Source: Octopus vulgaris (lineage: Eukaryota). Taken from it: 64,000 nucleotides of DNA. The stretch lies in NCBI GenBank assembly GCA_951406725.2, contig OX597831.1, positions 33,976,001-34,040,000 on the forward strand. Reading direction: 5' to 3'. Positions 3,507 to 55,966 of this stretch are shown in pieces. Numbering within the stretch: the first letter of the stretch is position 1; each line of letters starts with the position of its first letter. Made by a program: the position numbers and the translations under genes. The notes under the pieces were generated by a model that saw only the letters and a program-made list of their open reading frames with translations, made no database searches and was not told the origin of the DNA.

Positions 3507-3544
3507 ACGTAAGAGTGGCTGTGTGGCAAGTAGCTTGCTTACCA
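3507..3544 (+). mobile_element. SINE family A, tRNA-like head (5' part, interrupted by an insertion)
   Basis: GAGTGGCTGTGTGGCAAGTAGCTTGCTTACCA matches the heads at 9216, 15005 and 63862. The SINE resumes at 4829. Confidence 0.85.
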
Positions 3545-4828
3545 GCCGTTAAATTTATCTCACGGTGACCCTAATATGCAACGGTCTGGTTGCTATTTGA
3601 CTGCCCACAAGAAGCTTGCGACTTTGTAAGCCAGCCCCTTGAGGGCAAAGAAATATTGTTTCTCCCAAACTATATGGGACAAAAATTATTGAGGGCTTGG
3701 ATCTGCGGCCTACCACCCGGAGTTGAGCCCGAGTGGATAGAGGACTCTATCCGCCGGGGTCTGGGTGGGAGCAGTGCCAAGCTGCTAAATGTAAAAGTGT
3801 TGCCTGCGGCTGATTGGGAGGGGTCGAAAGCTGTTTTGACCCTATGGACCCAATCAGCCGAAAGTCTGGTTTTTCCAGATATTTGAGGATGGCCGGGTCC
3901 AGGTATCCGGTGATGCTTGAGGGACGCCTCCCAAGTGTCACCTGTGCCTGGAGACCGGCCACATTAAGAAGAACTGCCCCAGGGACCAAAGTAGGATCCT
4001 GGAGCAGTTAATGGTGGAATCTCTCCCTGCTCCCCCAATGAAGGGAGAGAAACAGAACGAGGAAATTGCTACATCCTCAAAAAAGAAAAGAAAGATGGGC
4101 AACAATGGTGACCCACGGAAAGACCCGGGAGCTGCGGGAGAAAAAGAGGACCCGTTGTGTGCAACACAGGAACCTCACCCTCCCGCGGCCCAGGGAAAAA
4201 AGGAAAAAAAGAAGAAAGAGAAACGGGACGCCGCCGGCGGATTGTAACACGCAGACGGCGTCTCTCAAGTCTCCTCAGGTGGGTGTGCCGCCGGAGAATC
4301 AATATGTGGTTCTCTTCCACAAAGAAGGAACGCTTGAAAACGAGATAGGTAAAATGAGAAGGAGAGGCCAATGGGAGGGACTTCGGTCCTGCACGGAGGA
4401 CCCCGAGTGGCCTTCGCAGGTGGCTGCGGAGGTCCTATAGGATAGCGATCTGAGCAGGATCGTGAATTCCTTCCCGGAGGACTCCTTTCAATTTATACCT
4501 GTATGGTACGGCCTGACAAAGAATGATTGCCTCAATGAAGCAATAGCGCTGGTCGGCCGGGTGACGAACTTTTTGAATGTTTTAAAAAGAAAAATTGTAT
4601 CGTATTGAGAAAGAGGTTCATTGCCTCATTGTGACTTTTGTGAAATTTTGTGACATTTTGAATTTTTTGAAAAAAGAACATTGTCTTAGAGAAGCCGAAG
4701 TCGGCGGGCGCTTTCGTCTTCTCCCATCACCATCTTTGTTCCATCACCATCATTCATACCATCAATGTCTACGTCCAGCCCGCAAAGCTACACCTGTGTA
4801 ATGCCCCTGTGGTAAATTAGATAAAATA
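3545..4828 (+). mobile_element. 5'-truncated non-LTR retroelement carrying only a degenerate L1/Tx1-like ORF1 (RRM-like region plus CCHC zinc knuckle)
   Basis: Frameshifted ORF reads LFDCPQEACDF...RAWICGLPPGVEPEWIE...EGR/PKCHLCLETGHIKKNCP (CX2CX4HX4C at 3936-3977), then a K-rich linker and a C-terminal segment to about 4580. It ends with a short 3' UTR, the A-rich end ATAAAATAAA and a 17-bp TSD AAGTAGCTTGCTTACCA (3528-3544, 4829-4845). Confidence 0.8.
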
Positions 4829-4969
4829 AAGTAGCTTGCTTACCAACCACATGGTTTCGAGTTCAGTCCCACTGCGTGGCACTTTGGGCAAGTGTCTTCT
4901 ACTATAGTCTCGTGCTGACCAAAGCCTTGTGAGTGGATTTGGAAGACGGAAACTGAAAAGAAGCCCGTC

Positions 4970-4970
<1 letters not shown>
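4829..4970 (+). mobile_element. SINE family A, continuation after the insertion
   Basis: B-box-like GAGTTCAGTCCC and body CACTTTGGGCAAGTGTCTTCTACTATAG...GGAAACTGAAAAGAAGCCCGTCG, as in other copies. Confidence 0.9.
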
Positions 4971-5475: not shown

Positions 5476-5685
5476 CGAACGCACATACACTCACATACAC
5501 ACACACACACATGGATATACATGTATACGAAGGGCTTCTATCAGCTTCCGTCTGTCAAATCCATTCACAAACCTTAAGTCAGCTCGAGGCTATAGTAGTG
5601 GACATTTGCCCAAAGTGTCATGCGGTACACTGAACCCCAAGCCATGCGGTTGGGGGAAGCAAGCCTTTTACAACACACCACGCTT
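5230..5685 (-). mobile_element. SINE family A, diverged full-length copy with internal (GCAC)n
   Basis: Reverse complement of the family A head, body and tail. Confidence 0.8.
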
Positions 5686-5805
5686 ATATTGATATATATA
5701 TTGATAGAAATGGTAAGACAACAAAAGAATGAAAGAGACCTCGATGTTAAGTAAATAGAGGAATTTATATGTAAATGGAATATGTGACAATTATTCGGTA
5801 GCCAT

Positions 5806-5867
5806 GATAAAACTTCCGAGTTTCGGATGCCGAAGTGGAAATCCACGCCACCATCTCTTCAGTTATC
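5806..5867 (-). ncRNA. Type I hammerhead ribozyme motif, unit 1 (GUU site)
   Basis: GAUAA-CUGAAGA-GAUG...CAUCC-GAAA-CU-CGGA-AG-UU-UUAUC. Confidence 0.55.
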
Positions 5868-5916
5868 CGGCCATCTAAACTGTAAATGTAATATGTGACA
5901 ATTATTCGGTAGCCAT

Positions 5917-5977
5917 GATAAGACTCCGAGTTTCGGATGCCGAGGTGGAAATCTACGCCGCCATCTCTTCAGTTATC
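5917..5977 (-). ncRNA. Type I hammerhead ribozyme motif, unit 2 (GUC site)
   Basis: GAUAA-CUGAAGA-GAUG...CAUCC-GAAA-CU-CGG-AG-UC-UUAUC. Stem I is GAUAA/UUAUC, the core is intact and stem III is short. Confidence 0.7.
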
Positions 5978-6101
5978 CGGCCATCGGAAACTGTAAGTGT
6001 AATATGTGCCAATTATTCGGTAGCCATGATAAAACTCTCCACCTGGGCATCCGAAACTCGGAGTTTTTTCATGGCTACCGAATGATTGCCACACATATTA
6101 C

Positions 6102-6186: not shown

Positions 6187-8568
6187 GTATATTTCTGCAT
6201 ATATGACGACGACTGAATACTAAAATTTACTCTAAAAATTTAGGGTCTCTTATACCACCATTCTAAATATCAAACCTTGAATTTCAAGTGAGCTTATAAG
6301 TAAGATAACCTCGATCTCGGTGCGATAACCACAGAGACACGTGAACAGGTTAACAAAATAAAAAAAATTATAATATAGGTAATAAAAACAATTTTACTTT
6401 ATATATTATTGGCATATGTTCATAATAAATAGCCTATTCGAGAGATAATTCTCTATCATTGAAATCAACTTTTATCTATGCGATTTGGGATGGGAAAATG
6501 TAAACATCGAGTTTTGTTGCGCTCACAATAACCTTTATCTTTCGTTAACCTTTCAAAAAGTTTAATGGTGATGTATAAGTGTAGTAATAACATTTAGAAT
6601 AACATATTTATATTTTTCATAAAATATCTATAATCATTTGATGGTAAATAACACAATTTGGATTACACACAACCTTTATTTTTCAATAAAATTATTTTAC
6701 GGTCATTGCAATTAAAACATAAGACACTATATTTAAAAAAAATTTCCTATCAAGATAAATGATATTGATAAAACTTCAAACCTGACACATGTATTTATCT
6801 AAAACCTATCAAATTCCTCACAATCATTACAATCTGTTTCTAAACGTTTCCTACACATATAAGACTTATCACGTATGTCTTCATTGTAAGGATTCCAGTC
6901 GGGTTCTGGTGAATCGACTTCTACTCCGACGTCGCTATTGTACAGAATATCATCTTTGGTACCATCGATGACATTAGAGATACCGCATTTTAAAAATGAT
7001 TTTATTACATTTTCTACTTTATTTTTGACCCATGCCTTTATAACGAAATCAGACATCACCAAGTGAGGCAGCACGATTAACTCCACCGTTTGTAAAAGAT
7101 TTTTCTCTATTCGTAAACCAGTCATTCCATTGCTCTCTCACATTATCTTTAAATAGTTTGTTTAAACTGACACCAGGTGGCTGCAGTATAGAAGTCAAAC
7201 CCCCAAGAATAACAACAGTATCAGTATTGGTTTTGGGTACTCACGTTTTAGTATTTGCCGTTACGTGACTAAGAAACATATCCCAAACCAATAAACTGCG
7301 TTCGTTTCGTATGGCACCTGGTCCCCCTGTTCCAAATATTCTCAATCCATAATTTCATATCACTCTCGTTCATCCACCCTGTCTCGTGAAAATGAACAAA
7401 ACCACCTGGAGGAAAATCTATTTGGGGTTTAGTTTTTTGTATTATCAGCCATGCAGGATAATACCACCGTTAAACCTCGTTTTTTCATGTCCCGTGCTCT
7501 TAACGTGCACCGTTTCTTCTCCTTTCAAATCTACCGTTTTGTTACCCAGCATGTCAAAGTTTAACGGAGTTTTATCCATATTTCCAATATGAGCCAATGG
7601 AAACTGATGCATTTTTCTCAGCTGGATGATGAACTGGTGGAAAATGGTTACTTTGTGATCGAGATCTTTGGGGCGATTTTTGTTTTCTCCCTTATTACCA
7701 GATTTTTTTCTGTTCATAAAACAACTGAACCAGCCTACTGTGGCTTTAAACTCTTTACTTTCTTCTTTATGTGATTTAGCCCATTTTAGGACATAAGGTT
7801 TTATTTTATTTCGTGTTTCAATGAAGCCATCTAGTCTCTGCTGGACTATCCATTCTGCTACATCATTTTCTAACTTCGGCCAACGAGTGCTTCTTCTTCT
7901 CATTGCACGTTTTTGTTTGGGCATTTGCCTTAATTTTTTTCTTTCTCCACTCTCTTACCATCTTCTCGGTATGTTCTAACAACAGCACAATTGTTCGAAC
8001 TCTTGGTTCCTGCTATAATTTTCAATTTGAAACTAGCCTCATATTTTCTTCTTTTCGTTGGTGATTGCATATTGGTATGGGTATAAAATAATTATAAATT
8101 TCACTTGACTAGACAGTTTGTGCTTTTATATAAAGTATATTGAAAAGGTTATTGATACACCAGGCTGACTGTCACTGTTTAGAACATTGCTGTCTTAAGA
8201 ATCACTATTATCATATTGTTGTTAGCGATTGTTATAATAGTGATAAAGTTTTGATAAAGAAGAAGAATCAGGTTCTCTTTTTAGGCGATGTATGTATGCA
8301 AAAATATTATGTAGAAACAGATTTGTTATTTCGTTTATTTTAATTTGTAAGGATATAGTAAGTAAAAAAAAAAAACTTTTGTAAAAGCATCATCTTTACA
8401 TGACCAATATTTCTAAATATACCCGTTTGTTGCAAAAGCCATTCTGTACACAAATGGTTTTGTAATTTAGCAGTCCTCTTATACTACAAACATGAGAAAA
8501 ATTTATGATTTTTTTACAAATTATGGCCTCGTCTTATCTAAAGATCGTCTTATACGCGGAAATATACG

Positions 8569-9215: not shown

Positions 9216-9451
9216 GGCACTGGAGTGGGTGAGAGGTAAGTAGTTTGCTTACCAACCACATGGTTCTTGGTTCAGTTCCACTGCGTTACGCCTTGCCCAA
9301 GTGTCTTCTACTATAGCTTCGGGCCGACCAGAAGCTTGTGAGTGGATTTCGTAGACGGAAACAGAAAGAAGGTCGTCGTATATATGTATATTATATATAT
9401 AGATCTATATGTTTGCGCGTCTGTGTTTGTTCCCCACCCCCCATCGCTTGA
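9216..9451 (+). mobile_element. SINE family A, 5' half
   Basis: Matches the family A head and body. Confidence 0.85.
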
Positions 9452-35421: not shown

Positions 35422-35461
35422 GGCGTAGGTGTAGTTATATGGTAAGAAGCTCGCTTCCCAA
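35422..35461 (+). mobile_element. SINE family A head, cut off at the insertion site
   Basis: GGCGTAGGTGTAGTTATATGGTAAGAAGCTCGCTTCCCAA versus GGCGCAGGCGTGGCTGTGTGGTAAGAAGCTTACTTCCCAA at 15005. Confidence 0.7.
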
Positions 35462-36580
35462 TGCGCATTCGTTGTTGTCAGTGTTGTTCGTACCACTGAT
35501 TGAAGTCGCCACGCTGGTTTGAAGCTGGTGAAATAGTGATTAAAAAAGAAGCTCAACTGCAAGGTAGAACTTTTGCTTTTTTGATCCAGTGGGGGGTTTG
35601 TTGTTTGCCGTAAATATTTTTTTTTACAAACAAGAAGTCCTCAGTGGATTCTGGACTCGGGTCTGCCTACAGTTGAGTGAATAGTTTTTCTCACTTAATT
35701 GTGAGAAATGTTATTTGGGGGGGCGTATCTCGCTTCCAAAAATTTGTTCACTTTAAGCGAATAGTTTTTCTCACTTAATTGTGAGAATTGTTGTTTCCAA
35801 AATTTGTTCACTTTTAGTGAATAGTTTCTTTCAAAAATTGTGAGAATTCACCGAAGATACAACTTATTTCACCAATTTTTGTGGAAGCTGTGTTTCAAGT
35901 TGTGACGTTCTGGGTTCAAATTGGATTACAAAGTGGGCGTGGATTACCTAGTGGCCAGAAGATTTTTGCTTGCTGGGTTTTTTTCAACTGTAGACTTTTT
36001 TCTTTCTTCTATCTTTTATTTGTGACTTTCTTTTTATTGAACTGTTTTCTTTTTTCTTCCTTCCTTTTTGTTGTGATTTTCTTTTGATTTTTTGATTTTT
36101 CTTCCCTCCTTTTTTAAATTTTTTATCATGGACTGTCTGAACATTTTGTTTAAAAAAAAAACATGGCAAAGAACAAGGACAATGTTTTGGAGTAGGAAAT
36201 TGTACCACCCAAACAGTGGTTGAAAGACTTTGAAGAGAGGACGGTGGTATTGAGGACTTACTTCAAGTCGCTCGAAACCATCGCCCAAGTTGAAAAGAAT
36301 GTTATCGAAAGGGAGTTGGCAGAGAATCTGCCAGCAAATTAAATTCATCTCCAAGGGTTCAAATATGCAACGGTGTGGTTACTATTTGACACCCCCTGAG
36401 GAGACCCGCAAATTTGAGAGTCAGCCCTTGGAGAGCAAAGAGATTTTGTTCTTTCCCACGTATTGTGGGAAGTTGACAAGAGCTTGGGTCTGCGGGTTGC
36501 CAACTGGGATAGAACCCGAGTGGATAGAGGAGACTATCCGCCTGGGTTTGGGTGGCAGCGGAGCCAAGCTCCTCAATGTA
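35462..36580 (+). mobile_element. 5' part (putative 5' UTR plus ORF1 N-terminus) of a second L1/Tx1-like ORF1 element
   Basis: ORF from ATG at about 36163: MAKNKDNVLE*...ERTVVLRTY..., then SQPLESKEILFFPTYCGKLTRAWVCGLPTGIEPEWIEETIRLGLGGSGAKLLNV, clearly homologous to 3590-3886. The 3' part is lost at a (TA)n tract. Confidence 0.75.
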
Positions 36581-37499
36581 ATATATATATATATGTTTTT
36601 ATATATGTTCTTTTTTGTTTTTGCTTGGGATATGCAAGCCTAACCATATAAATCCCTGGTTCTATGCATAAATTGTTGATAAAACAAGTTATAACAACAA
36701 ACGGATTTTATACACTGAAAAGTCGACGTTCGAATGTATTTGCATAATGATGCCTCAGGAATCTAGCATATATTATATACTATATAATAATAGAACAACA
36801 TTCTTGAGATCGAATAGCGATGAAACAATTGTAAATTTATGTAATAAAATGACTTGCTCACTCCATTCTCCTTGTGAATATTTATATAAACTCATCAAAT
36901 ATTTATGGATTTTCCGAAATATTACCTGTGAAACAATCAGTCTGCGATTTAAAGTCAAATGTTATAGCTTAATGGAATGACCTCAAGAACTAAAACCTGA
37001 ATGGAATTGATATTATAAATATAAGGATCATTAAATGGCGTTTAAAGTTTACAACATATAATACATTTCATTAGAAACCCATATATGGCGTTACAGCCCA
37101 TAACAGATGCCTGGTATTACTCAGATAAACCCATATAACTGAGTGAGCAAACATAAGAAGAAAAGAGTATATACATACACGGTCACACGCACATATACAC
37201 AAACATACATGTATATGTATGTATATATATATGTATGTATGTATTGGTCATCAATCTTATTATTCATTTTGATTCATTTCAAATCATTAGTAATTTGCTA
37301 AATGACCGCGGTGATGGCAAATTTATGTTCATTAGAATAGGGAAATGTCGGCAGGATTGTCGATTGTCCTCTAATAAATTACGATCTTAAATGAGATAGC
37401 AATAGATCTAATAAAACCAATGAGAAACACACTTCCATATTGCTTGCTTCCAGCTATATTCGTCTCAATGAATTATACCTACAAGTTATGAAATCATAA

Positions 37500-42803: not shown

Positions 42804-43700
42804 CGAGGTCTGATCAATAAGTATCCGGACAGTTGCGCCAGAGTAACGAAACTATAGTATGCAGAGTAAAGCTTCTTGGCAAAGTTTGACCTTGAACACT
42901 GCCGTATAAGTGCACTAAGTTTCAACGTTCTAGCTTACTTCCGCTGTTTACAGCAGTGCACGGAAGGAAGGTGTGTAGCGTCTGATTATCGCATTGAAAA
43001 TGACAGAGACGGTTGAGCAGAGAACCTGCATCAAATTTTACCAAAAGCTTGGCGATACATGTTGAGAGGCCTATGCAAAGTTTTCAAAAAGTTTTCATTG
43101 TACTTGACGCAATCAGCGAGATTTTGTGCAACAGAAACCCGTGTGTCTTACTGATCAGCTGAAAGCAGTTTTGGCACTAACTTGGCAGACACGCGTCTCA
43201 TACTCAAATCTTCAGTGATAATGGACTGAACTGATCCGTAACCAATTTACACTTCCTCTGGTAACTCATAGGTGATGATTCGACTATTTCTCCATCACAG
43301 CTGTACGCATATATGCGATGAATTTTTCAGTTCTGCTGGTTGAGGGTCTTCCAGAACGTTCGTCAATATCAACATTTTTCGGCCATCTTGGAAACAGGTG
43401 AACCACCCATACGCTTGTGTGCAGCTCATACACTCCTCTCCATACACTTTCTGCAACTTTTCGTAGACCTCTGAGAAGGTATCCCTATGAAAACTTTCTC
43501 TGTCATGGTCAATACGATCATCACACGCTACACACCTCCCTTCGAAGCACTGCTGTAAACAGCGAAAGTGAGCTAGAACAAAAAAACGTATTGCACATGT
43601 AGAAACAAGGTGCAGATCAATCTGTGCGAAGCGGTTTTACTCTACGTTCTTTAGCTACGTTAATATGGCAACAATCCGGATACTTGTCGATCAGACCTCG
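42804..43700. mobile_element. Non-autonomous mariner element built from two opposed 5' ends
   Basis: TA TSD and TIR CGAGGTCTGATCAATAAGTATCCGGA / TCCGGATACTTGTCGATCAGACCTCG. The inverted arms extend more than 200 bp, through the transposase ATG. Confidence 0.9.
43085..43506 (-). pseudogene. mariner transposase N-terminal fragment
   Basis: EVYEKLQKVYGEECMSCTQAYGWF..FQDGR..DIDERSGRPSTS...IITEDLSMRRVSAKLVPKLLSADQ (WVPHEL-type motif), with frameshifts. Confidence 0.85.
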
Positions 43701-46845: not shown

Positions 46846-46907
<62 letters not shown>

Positions 46908-46908
<1 letters not shown>

Positions 46909-47255
46909 GCGCAGGAGTGGCTGTGTGGTTCCAGGTTCAGTCCCATTGCGTGTCTTATACTATAGCCTCGGGCCGACCAAACCCTTGTGAGTGGATTTGG
47001 TAGACGGAAACTGAAAGAATCCTGTCGTATATATGTATATATATGTATATGTTTCTGTGTTTGTGTTTGTCCCCCCAGAATCTCTTGACAACCAATGCTG
47101 GTGTGTTTACGTCCCCGTAACTTAGCGGTTCGTCAAAAGAGACCGATAGAAGAAATACCAGGCTTACAAAGACTAAGTCCAGAGGCCGATTTGCTCGACT
47201 AAAGGCGGAGCTCCAGCATGACCACACTCAAATGACTGAAACAAGTTAAAAAAGA
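46908..47255 (+). mobile_element. SINE family A, near full length
   Basis: Head (with internal deletions), body and tail are present. Confidence 0.9.
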
Positions 47256-52894: not shown

Positions 52895-54209
52895 TATTCT
52901 GAAAGACTCTCGGATAGTTCTTAATTACCGGTTATTCTTTACTTGAAAACAGACAAAACCAAATCACCAAAGGTTTCAAAAGTGACTCAAAGAGACAATA
53001 TTCTCCTTAGAATGCGAGCTGCACCCAACAATGCTGTCTTCTGGATCACTTCGAGCCTGACAGTTAGCTCTAATATTCTTAATGTGTTTTTCAAAGCCCT
53101 TGGAAGCTGCTCCTAATGCTCCAATTACCACCGGTATCACAATTTCTTTCCTCGTACCTCATAACTTTCCTATCTTGTTCTGCGGTGGCTGCTAATTTTC
53201 AGTTTTTTTCTGTTTCCTTACATTTTACCCTCAAATCGCCTGGTATTGCAGCATCTATTAACTCTACTTTTTTTTCATCTTTATCGATGAGTACGATAGC
53301 TGGTCGTGTCGCCTCTATGACTTGGTCGCACTGCATGTTAAAATCCTAGAGAATTTTCTAATGTTCCTTTTTCCATCACTCCCTCTGGCTTGTGTTTATA
53401 CTATTGTTCGGCTCACTCAAGGTTTGCTTTACCACACAAATGGAAATAGTTGGCCACATTGTCGTGTCTCCTTTTGTATTCTCGTTGTGCAAGCTTACAG
53501 CATTCGCTAACAATATAGCTTATACGAACCAAGCCAGGCTATTCTCCTCTTTCCTTACACAATCTTCACAACACACCAATCTCCGTTCCCCTTCCTTCCT
53601 CTTCACATACAATCTTGATTCATCACTCTTGGAGTGTAGTTCCTAGTTCCTTGTCATTAATTTACGTGTTTTCCGGCCTATCTTTTGTAATTCATGCTTC
53701 TTCCAAGATACTATTCCTGCCCCATATCACATCAAATCAACCGCCCACGTACTGCTCTAATCTTACAGCGGCCATTTAGCTTCGATTGGAGCACAAGCCG
53801 GGTTTTCCTCAAATACTCTTCCTTGTACATTTCTTTCATGTTGTGTTCATTCATCTTATCTTTTTCAATGATACCCAGGTACTTATATCCTTCTTCTCCG
53901 ACTTCCTTTATAGTTTCACCACTTTCCAGCTTGATCCCATGGCTTTTACTGATTTCCCCCCTTTTGAGAATCATTACACCACATTTCTCGATCCCAAATT
54001 CCATGTCCTTATATTTGCTAATCATCTGCACAGTAGCCGTCAAACACTCAATTTCTTTCTCGGTCTTAGCGAATAGCTTTAGGTCATCCATAAACCACAG
54101 GCTGTTTACTTTCACCCGGCCTAGCACGTACTCCACACGCATCTTTCTTAAAACGCTCGTTAGTGGCAGGTTGCAGACAACAAATAGGAGAGGCGACAAA
54201 CTGTCCCCA
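52895..54209 (-). mobile_element. Dong/R4-clade non-LTR retrotransposon, 5'-truncated and internally deleted
   Basis: RT motifs GDSLSPLLF...FMDDLKLFAK...FGIEKC...YKYLGI; IVSECCKLAQREYKRRHDNVA; RLE motifs RPAIVLIDK...IDAAIPGD...VIGALG. Flanked by (TAT)n. Confidence 0.9.
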
Positions 54210-54219
54210 ATTATCATTA

Positions 54220-54269
<50 letters not shown>

Positions 54270-54290
54270 GTTACTTTTTTTTTCTTCTTC

Positions 54291-54880
54291 TTTCAAATTT
54301 GCTTCCATTTCTTGCCGAGTGTCTTCCTGACTCCTAGGGCAAAGAAACTCATACATTGGTAGGCCATTAAACCAAACTCAGTAGTTCGTTCATTTTTTTT
54401 TTTTTTATTTTTTTTTTAAAGTTAAATTAAAATACATGAGCAGCAACAGTTCTCACATCGACAATGCTCTTCTCAATACGTGTGATGTACCAGTTAAGAC
54501 AATCTTTTGCACTTCTTGCAGGGATGGTAAGCCAGGGATCATTCTCATATAATTTTCGGTTCCCTTCTTGATCATTCCTAGTGCTCCTACGATCACTGGT
54601 ATTGTAACCGCCTTGAGATGCCACATTTTCTCAATTTCAATGAGTAGGTCTTTATATTTTCTGAGCTTGTCAAACTCTTTCGCTGAGATATTATGATCAC
54701 AGGGGATGCTCATGTCGATCAATAAGCAAACTTTATTGTTTTGGTCTTTCACAACAATATCTGGTTTATTGGCCTTGATGGTTCGGTCTGTATGTACTGG
54801 AAAGTCCCACAGAATGGTTACATTTTCTCCTTCAGTTACAGCCTCAGGGTGGTGATTATACCACTTGTCGGCAGTTTTGA
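54291..54880 (-). mobile_element. Second Dong/R4-clade element, 3' end (RLE domain open to the stop at 54453)
   Basis: WYNHHPEAV..ILWDFPVHTDRTIKANKPDIVVKD..LIDMSIP..KLRKYKDL..IPVIVGALG..QKIVLTGTSHVLRRALSM*. (TAT)n on both sides. Confidence 0.9.
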
Positions 54881-54983
<103 letters not shown>

Positions 54984-55966
54984 TCGCTTAGGCAGAGAAG
55001 TGCTGATAACTTAGTGTTAGAACTAAAAAAACACATAATTCAGAAACACGCGTCAGTCGAGTAGAGAACAGTAGTAAGAAATTAAATGACACGGGAATAA
55101 GAAGTTATGTAAGGAAGTTCAAAAAATAATTTCTTAATTTCTTTTAACCTTGTACTTAATTCACTGTTTGGGTTCCGGCCATCCTGGGGCACCGCATTGA
55201 AGTGCTTAGTCAAACAAATCGACCCCAGCACTTCTTATTCTTTAAGCCTGGGACTTATTATATCGATCGCTTTCGCCTAACCACTAAGTTACGGGAACGT
55301 AACCAAACCTACTTTGGTTACGTAATTAGTACTGATGTCTCCTTTACTTTTTCTTTTCTCTCATTAATTTAGAAAACAATTAGCGGAATATTTCTTCATT
55401 AACTGGATAATTATTAGTTACTGATATCCTTTCCATTTACGTGTCCAGTCTTGACACGGCAAATAAAAAACTCAAAATTATCACGTGCCTTAAAAAGCAC
55501 CATTTAATATAATTTTCTATATCTTTTAAAATCATTTTCGGTTTTATTTTTTATCATTGGTGTTTTATCTGTTATTTGCAGTTTTTTTTCCTTATTTTAT
55601 TCTCAAAGTTCAGTCTAAATTAAAATGACATTTGTTGCTGATATTTCGCATGATAAATGAATAAATTGCGTTCCTTGACAGAACCGACGCTAATTTTTCT
55701 TTATTAACAATATCCCAATGAAATACAAACATGAAATAAATCTGTTTTTAAACTTATTTAAAAGACGCGGAGAAAAGACACGCAAATTCAACGAAGAATC
55801 TGTTACCTTGAGGCAAAAATAATAAAACAAAAAAGGAGAAAGAAAAGAAAAATGTGTAATATCATAAACTACAAGTCAGGAAGTAAATGACACCATTTTG
55901 AGGATATTAGCAAACATATAACTTATGCAATGGTGCATATTTCATATAGAAAATAATCAACATAAT

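Follow-up and report, generated by a model that had tools for sequence, protein, structure and literature searches.

What kind of element interrupts a SINE with a single open reading frame, and is the missing partner a property of its family or an accident of one copy? We studied these questions for an insert in a 64,000-nucleotide stretch of Octopus vulgaris DNA, to which we refer as the window. The original prediction for this locus, made without database searches, was that a LINE ORF1 lacking ORF2 had been inserted by target-primed reverse transcription (TPRT) in the manner of a HAL1-like half-LINE. Table 1 lists the features on which the following analysis is based.

Table 1. Features of the two copies and of the SINE sequence around them (positions in the window).
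Feature	Position	Strand	Evidence or remark
5' SINE part, A box then target site	3509..3544	+	nhmmer 3509-3548, E=7e-6
5' copy of the target-site duplication (TSD); last 3 nt CCA are microhomology with the element	3528..3544	+	tblastn extends to 3539
Copy 1: 5'-truncated non-LTR insert, ORF1 only, 1,284 bp	3545..4828	+	
ORF1: second half of RRM1 and RRM2 (residues ~59-185 of P0001)	3548..3920	+	
CCHC zinc knuckle, then K/E/P-rich low-complexity linker	3921..4244	+	
Open frame of ~120 codons, stop 4438, terminal TGA 4606-4608	4240..4608	+	openness P=0.009
3' region, 220 bp, short A-rich terminus	4609..4828	+	
3' TSD copy (4829-4845) and remaining SINE including B box	4829..4970	+	profile match
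SINE 5' stub ahead of copy 2	35424..35461	+	nhmmer E=1e-4
Putative 5' UTR of copy 2, 702 bp	35461..36162	+	presumed part of the element, by position
Copy 2 ORF1, ATG 36163 through RRM1 into RRM2; disabled	36163..36580	+	

The split of the SINE and the 17-bp TSD that had been predicted were both recovered. The word AAGTAGCTTGCTTACCA occurs at 3528-3544 and again at 4829-4845 with all 17 nucleotides identical, the two occurrences are separated by 1,284 bp, and no longer word is common to both junctions. We built an nhmmer profile from six uninterrupted SINE copies of the window, which gave 13 SINE matches in the window. On this profile the two halves of the split SINE correspond to model positions 4-43 (3509-3548) and 23-163 (4829-4970). 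As the halves are in register with the uninterrupted copies, the repeated 17-mer is a true target duplication of SINE sequence, and the empty form of the site is present in the same window. In all four intact SINE copies examined there is an A box at -12 (one to two mismatches) and a B box at +31 (one to four mismatches) relative to the start of the TSD. From the spacing of the boxes the TSD would span roughly tRNA positions 20-37; neither Rfam nor ARAGORN identified a tRNA in the SINE. We presume that the SINE is the octopus OR1/OR2. In the available text of one paper OR2 is mentioned as an octopus CORE SINE (PMC4758252). The SINE accounts for 2.5% of the window and its copies differ by 12-21% (17-30 mismatches in 141 nt). 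Three further characteristics of the SINE copies were observed. At an anticodon-like position within the TSD the copies at 9238, 15027, 35444, 49870 and 63884 carry either ACC or CCC. The SINE at 46907-47027 (+) has two internal deletions, one of which takes out the target site. Part of the split SINE (4871-4956) and part of the neighbouring SINE (5541-5626) are inverted, 584 nt apart and 81% complementary.

The insert, copy 1, carries the remains of an ORF1. The closest relative, and the only close one detected, is the Octopus sinensis protein LOC115225585 (P0001, 281 aa, 80% identity), of which residues 56-276 align with tblastn to 3539-4196 in three frames. The reading is interrupted by stops (3566, 3572), by frameshifts (near 3880 and near 3920) and by another change of frame between about 4196 and 4247. 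Since the alignment only starts at residue 56 and runs through three frames with stops, copy 1 is 5'-truncated and dead. It begins at about residue 56-59 of P0001; the absent N-terminus is found in a second copy described below. At the 5' junction the last CCA of the target also represents element sequence as seen in that second copy, if one 1-nt indel is allowed, and such a match is as expected for a truncated TPRT product. For the detection of further domains we scanned 148 of the 438 ORFs of at least 55 aa in the window against Pfam, dropping low-complexity ORFs and the shortest ones. None of the 10 ORFs of the insert matched any Pfam family at E<=0.001, endonuclease and reverse transcriptase (RT) included, and the space in copy 1 is too small for an ORF2, so that the predicted lack of both enzymes holds. 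Transposase_22 matched neither P0001 nor any of the window pieces, and the knuckle of copy 1 matched zf-CCHC with E=0.0026, which is below the curated cut-off. Given the TSD and the truncation, we are highly confident that copy 1 is a LINE ORF1 inserted by TPRT, and for this copy the prediction of such an event without ORF2 is supported.

To which type of ORF1 protein does this frame belong? P0001 is 77-82% identical to the window copies and collinear with them over RRM1, RRM2, knuckle and linker; it is annotated as an uncharacterised host protein and has its C-terminus inside the linker. The two window copies and P0001 form three near-equidistant lineages, again with 77-82% amino acid identity. 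A phmmer search returned 47 proteins at E<=0.001 if the query is counted, most of the others being 23-36% identical. We ran Pfam on 25 of these 47 and found a zf-CCHC-type match in 9 of the 25 and an endonuclease or RT match in none; one is a chimeric model with an integrase. In this last protein (P0016) 45 residues of the family's ORF1 N-terminus, 64% identical to P0001, are joined to an integrase domain, and the gene model is probably a chimera predicted across elements nested in one another. The fold of P0001 was computed with AlphaFold2 from alignment A2, which holds 45 of the 47 phmmer matches (the chimeric P0016 and P0032 were left out), and showed two domains at a pLDDT of 80.6, compared to a pLDDT of 38 without the alignment. 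A single-sequence search of the PDB returned nothing below E=0.7. The best Foldseek matches of the model were tandem-RRM proteins (E between 4e-5 and 3e-4). With VIA, residues 14-102 matched the La RRM (Z=8.7, rmsd 2.7, 82 aligned) and residues 104-183 the U2AF65 RRM1 (Z=8.1, rmsd 2.4, 73 aligned), where both Z values are modest and the modelled protein is P0001 rather than the broken copy 1. In the model RRM folds take up residues 14-186. The look-alikes in the Atlas included CCHC and ZCCHC3-RBD clusters at 0.90-0.92. With two RRMs in the model and a CCHC knuckle, the ORF1 of the family has the composition of a Type I ORF1p. The prediction of an RRM-like region and a knuckle was correct in that both are present, but the family has two RRMs and not one. 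The combination of at least one RRM and a CCHC knuckle defines Type I ORF1p and is consistent with Tx1 in non-mammalian animals, according to the accessible part of PMC5203782. In a prokaryotic genome collection we found neither the protein nor the SINE, as expected.

Downstream of the linker the frame 4240-4605 comprises 122 codons with one stop, fewer than in shuffled sequences (P=0.009), and in GC richness it mostly matches the remaining ORF1. We regard it as probably the C-terminal part of ORF1. Several comparisons of this frame returned nothing: two pieces of it had no relevant match in Pfam, it was absent from the ranking of 2,130 window pieces by profiles from four to five relatives, its pairwise scores against the relatives were at shuffle level (for the best frame 394 of 500 shuffles scored as high), and a weak search of longer proteins gave none at E<=1 among 121 candidates. 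We also considered whether the frame is a C-terminal domain common to some of the relatives, for which there was a motif match by eye; the profiles did not uphold it. Because this open frame follows the low-complexity linker, the 3' region measures 220 bp, compared to the approximately 250 bp stated in the prediction. Seven of the last 10 nt of the insert are A, a count that 3% of the 10-mers in the window reach, and there is no A run. The expected A-rich end is weak, a minimal tail with nearly no poly(A). The sole AATAAA of the tail is located at 4825-4830 and overlaps the TSD by 2 nt. The predicted RNA fold of the tail was not better than that of shuffles (z=0.66), and the tail had no match elsewhere in the window. 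A candidate ORF2 remnant in the tail, a 71-aa frame at 4586-4798, matched neither Pfam nor the Atlas, a null that is uninformative.

The profile search of the window counted two copies of the family. The second copy (approximately 35,461-36,580, +), which first appeared as a 73% blastn match at 36339-36581, and the insertion site that it shares with copy 1 were not part of the original prediction. In front of copy 2 lies a SINE stub in the same orientation, and the SINE position at which it terminates agrees to within 1 nt with that of copy 1. All mismatches of the stub to the two closest intact SINE copies are transitions (9 of 9 and 10 of 10), and past the junction the SINE identity drops to 1-3 of 17. 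Copy 1 is inserted in an ACC-type SINE and copy 2 in a CCC-type SINE. The leader of copy 2 includes a 60-bp tandem repeat at 35734-35848. At its other end copy 2 breaks off at an (AT)n run; we detected neither its 3' part nor a second TSD for it in the window. A SINE 3' piece at 46926 was examined as the other half of the SINE hit by copy 2 and turned out to be a separate, internally deleted SINE.

Of the 13 SINE matches only two are 5' stubs, and each of them is followed by one of the family's two ORF1 relics in the window. With 9 target sites, a second insertion would hit the same site in the same orientation with a probability of ~2e-4 (computed post hoc with n=2). We then compared the coding sequences of the two copies. 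They differ at 16 first, 8 second and 31 third positions of 72 codons, which corresponds to dN/dS 0.17 and dS ~1.0 (69 codons). As most of the differences are at third positions, the copies derive from separate masters under selection on ORF1, and with separate masters the common SINE site is not a duplication. Such purifying selection, as read from the codon differences, would fit autonomous and non-autonomous masters alike. The dS of ~1.0 is larger than the divergence between SINE copies and thus the original target may predate the SINE expansion. This suggests that the lineages split before the present SINE copies arose and that there may have been an older target, e.g. earlier SINEs or tRNA genes. 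We consider a preference of the family for this SINE site very likely, and it is the stronger, better-supported and more unusual result when compared to the ORF1-only status. For comparison, a published criterion for target preference is that more than 20% of the flanks lie in one repeat (available text of PMC4494074), and our sample consists of two copies.

Other elements were encountered in the window. On the reverse strand, 6802-7954 holds a decayed Tc5/pogo-type DNA transposase (HTH_Tnp_Tc5 E=3.5e-4, DDE_1 E=6e-4, both below cut-off) and 43298-43636 a relic of a mariner transposase (HTH_48, E=3.4e-5). At 53735-55010 (-) there are an RT fragment (RVT_1, E=1.6e-7) and, upstream of it on that strand, a piece that resembles the C-terminus of a restriction-like endonuclease, each within (TAA)n runs; the region might contain two fragments of Dong/R4-type LINEs. 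At 5766-6037 a unit of ~111 bp is present in three copies that are 88-95% alike.

Is the lack of ORF2 a trait of the family? We lean slightly towards this reading. In copy 1 the ORF1 stop is followed by 220 bp up to the TSD without ORF2, a junction of ORF1 and tail that was seen once. Both window copies carry ORF1, a short tail follows what looks like the normal end of ORF1, and no family copy with only ORF2 or only the tail was found in the window. Set against this are the single junction, the putative nature of the ORF1 end and the deletions nearby. The principal alternative is an autonomous, SINE-targeting Tx1-like LINE of ~6 kb, from which copy 1 alone lost its ORF2 through a template jump or a later deletion. 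We consider this rather unlikely, though it is the most serious competitor. The evidence from the shared site fits it equally well, and deletions are common here, since copy 2 lost its 3' part and the SINE at 46907-47027 has internal deletions. Read by eye, the stretch around 4570-4650 may also resemble the extreme end of an L1/Tx1 ORF2. The recently active L1-Tx1 insertions of O. vulgaris average ~5.4 kb (2,288,644 bp over 421 insertions, as given in the accessible part of PMC13282606). However, such a loss must have removed essentially all of ORF2 while sparing both the open ORF1 end and the 3' terminus. Furthermore, most 5'-truncated copies of a 6-kb LINE should lack ORF1, yet two of two carry it, which is a weak argument with n=2.

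It is improbable that the insert is an ORF1-type LINE derivative without any site preference and that the stub of copy 2 was picked up as a 5' head or lies there by coincidence in a SINE-rich genome. In favour of this, the SINE makes up 2.5% of the window, some Tx1 families bear heads derived from small RNAs (PMC4494074, in the text available), and copy 2 is without a 3' TSD. A captured head that ends at the independent site of copy 1 would, however, be the trace of an earlier insertion there, and the chance of the coincidence is the ~2e-4 given above. Even less probable is that the insert was retrocopied from a host gene for an RRM-RRM-CCHC protein or from a domesticated ORF1 similar to ZCCHC3, a group that would include LOC115225585 itself. 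This best match is annotated as a host locus, the ZCCHC3 RBD cluster is among the Atlas look-alikes (0.90), and purifying selection between the copies would also fit paralogous genes. Against a host gene are the traits of a transposon: three near-equidistant lineages, dozens of diverged relatives, a pair of disabled copies that share one target site within 64 kb, and a leader with tandem repeats. In addition the O. sinensis protein terminates within the linker. In the parts of the literature examined we found no link between ZCCHC3 and a Tx1 ORF1. Least probable of all is that the insert is part of an LTR-element Gag. In favour of this, the knuckle (although the knuckle only) resembles retroviral nucleocapsids in the PDB and P0016 fuses the ORF1 N-terminus to an integrase domain. 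Against it, the folded part is modelled as two RRMs and not as a capsid, the insert has no terminal repeats (its longest internal exact repeat is 10 nt), P0016 resembles a chimeric gene model, and the TSD of 17 bp far exceeds the 4-6 bp that LTR integrases leave. The RRM folds and the missing LTRs disfavour Gag, and a host gene is unlikely.

The overall explanation that we tentatively prefer, at slightly less than an even chance, is an L1-group family, most likely Tx1, which is specific for the SINE site and of which copy 1 most likely derives from an ORF1-only, non-autonomous master. The L1/Tx1 origin is deduced from the ORF1 type, the TSD and the site preference rather than from an RT phylogeny. 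The master would measure ~2.2 kb, with a 5' UTR of ~0.7 kb, an ORF1 of ~410 codons and the 220-bp tail; these sizes are approximate because they are pieced together from two lineages. Type I ORF1p is an RNA-binding chaperone. The transcribed master would produce an RRM-RRM-CCHC ORF1p, with its domains assigned by the model, that coats its own RNA. The ORF2p of an autonomous relative would then bind the 3' end of this RNA in trans, and its AP-type endonuclease would nick the bottom strand of the SINE immediately 3' of the A box. The terminal A's of the RNA may pair with TT of the target and thereby prime reverse transcription. Opening of the top strand ~17 nt downstream would give rise to the TSD found around copy 1, whose synthesis ended early, in RRM1, and which was joined via the CCA microhomology. 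The insertion parts the A box from the B box, and separation of the boxes would disable the Pol III promoter of the SINE copy. An abundant, dispensable SINE may serve as a safe harbour for the element. There are possible helpers, as O. vulgaris has 80 L1-Tx1 families of which 13 were recently active, the latter with 421 insertions over 2.29 Mb (available text of PMC13282606). Target-specific APE elements belong to Tx1 or R1, as far as the available text of PMC4640811 goes. The helper would most likely be of the Tx1 clade.

A wider and still more tentative reading is that an old, multi-lineage Tx1-like clade of octopuses targets a fixed site that lies between the A box and the B box of its most abundant tRNA SINE and is accompanied by ORF1-only riders. 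This would amount to a system of three tiers (the SINE as target, a site-specific LINE and a half-LINE), and every insertion would cost one SINE copy its promoter. The target of the endonuclease has perhaps shifted from tRNA genes to the SINE.

We compared the element to systems described before. Known ORF1-only LINEs are HeT-A (Jockey), HAL1 (L1) and Ag-Sponge (CR1), and in the available text of PMC5786205 and PMC5753468 none from Tx1 is named. In these the element is non-autonomous, ORF1 and the 3' end are kept and movement occurs in trans, and the octopus element would be similar in these respects. HAL1 originates from the mammalian L1 and has a Type II ORF1p (coiled coil, one RRM, CTD), whereas that of the octopus element is Type I. 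Because HAL1 carries this mammalian Type II ORF1, the predicted likeness to HAL1 is retained in the functional sense of a half-LINE only, and the element is not a HAL1. Among the target-specific Tx1 LINEs, Tx1L inserts into Tx1D, the crocodilian Tx1-Mar into Mariner-N4_AMi, Keno (Tx1 clade) into U2 genes and Kibi and Koshi into microsatellites. Altogether the targets of Tx1 families include piggyBac, Mariner, Harbinger and LTR elements, U2 genes and microsatellites (PMC4494074, in the text accessible). The octopus family resembles these LINEs in its Type I ORF1 and in its probable fixed site within a multicopy sequence, which for Tx1 includes other transposons. The TSD lengths are also close, with 16 bp for SINEU-3, an inferred passenger of Tx1-Mar (available text of PMC4494074), and 17 bp for octopus copy 1. 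Compared to the Tx1 targets listed there, the tRNA-type SINE head, the cephalopod host and the absence of ORF2 are different.

A tRNA sequence is also the target of NeSL-1_TV, LIN15_SM, LIN25_SM and Dada (PMC4640811, PMC8869645, accessible parts). The sites of Dada cluster at the A box and the anticodon arm, and the octopus TSD extends from just past the A box to approximately the anticodon loop. However, these tRNA-gene targeters are restriction-like-endonuclease LINEs or DNA transposons, and they hit tRNA genes and not SINE copies. In the accessible portions of the open-access literature we encountered neither a LINE that targets a SINE nor an ORF1-only Tx1 family, nor any report of this octopus family. 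Equally, no such description occurs in the available text of PMC4758252, PMC8869645, PMC8967140 and PMC10351740.

If confirmed, the result would place a SINE head among the targets known for sequence-specific LINEs, and Tx1 among the clades that have spawned ORF1-only derivatives. The system would then offer a natural test of why non-autonomous LINEs retain ORF1, and another of how specificity shifts between tRNA genes and their SINE descendants. If a partner ORF2 had its defined target in so common a repeat, it would represent a new site-specific AP endonuclease. For the octopus genomes themselves, annotated 'genes' of the LOC115225585 type are probably transposon ORF1s.
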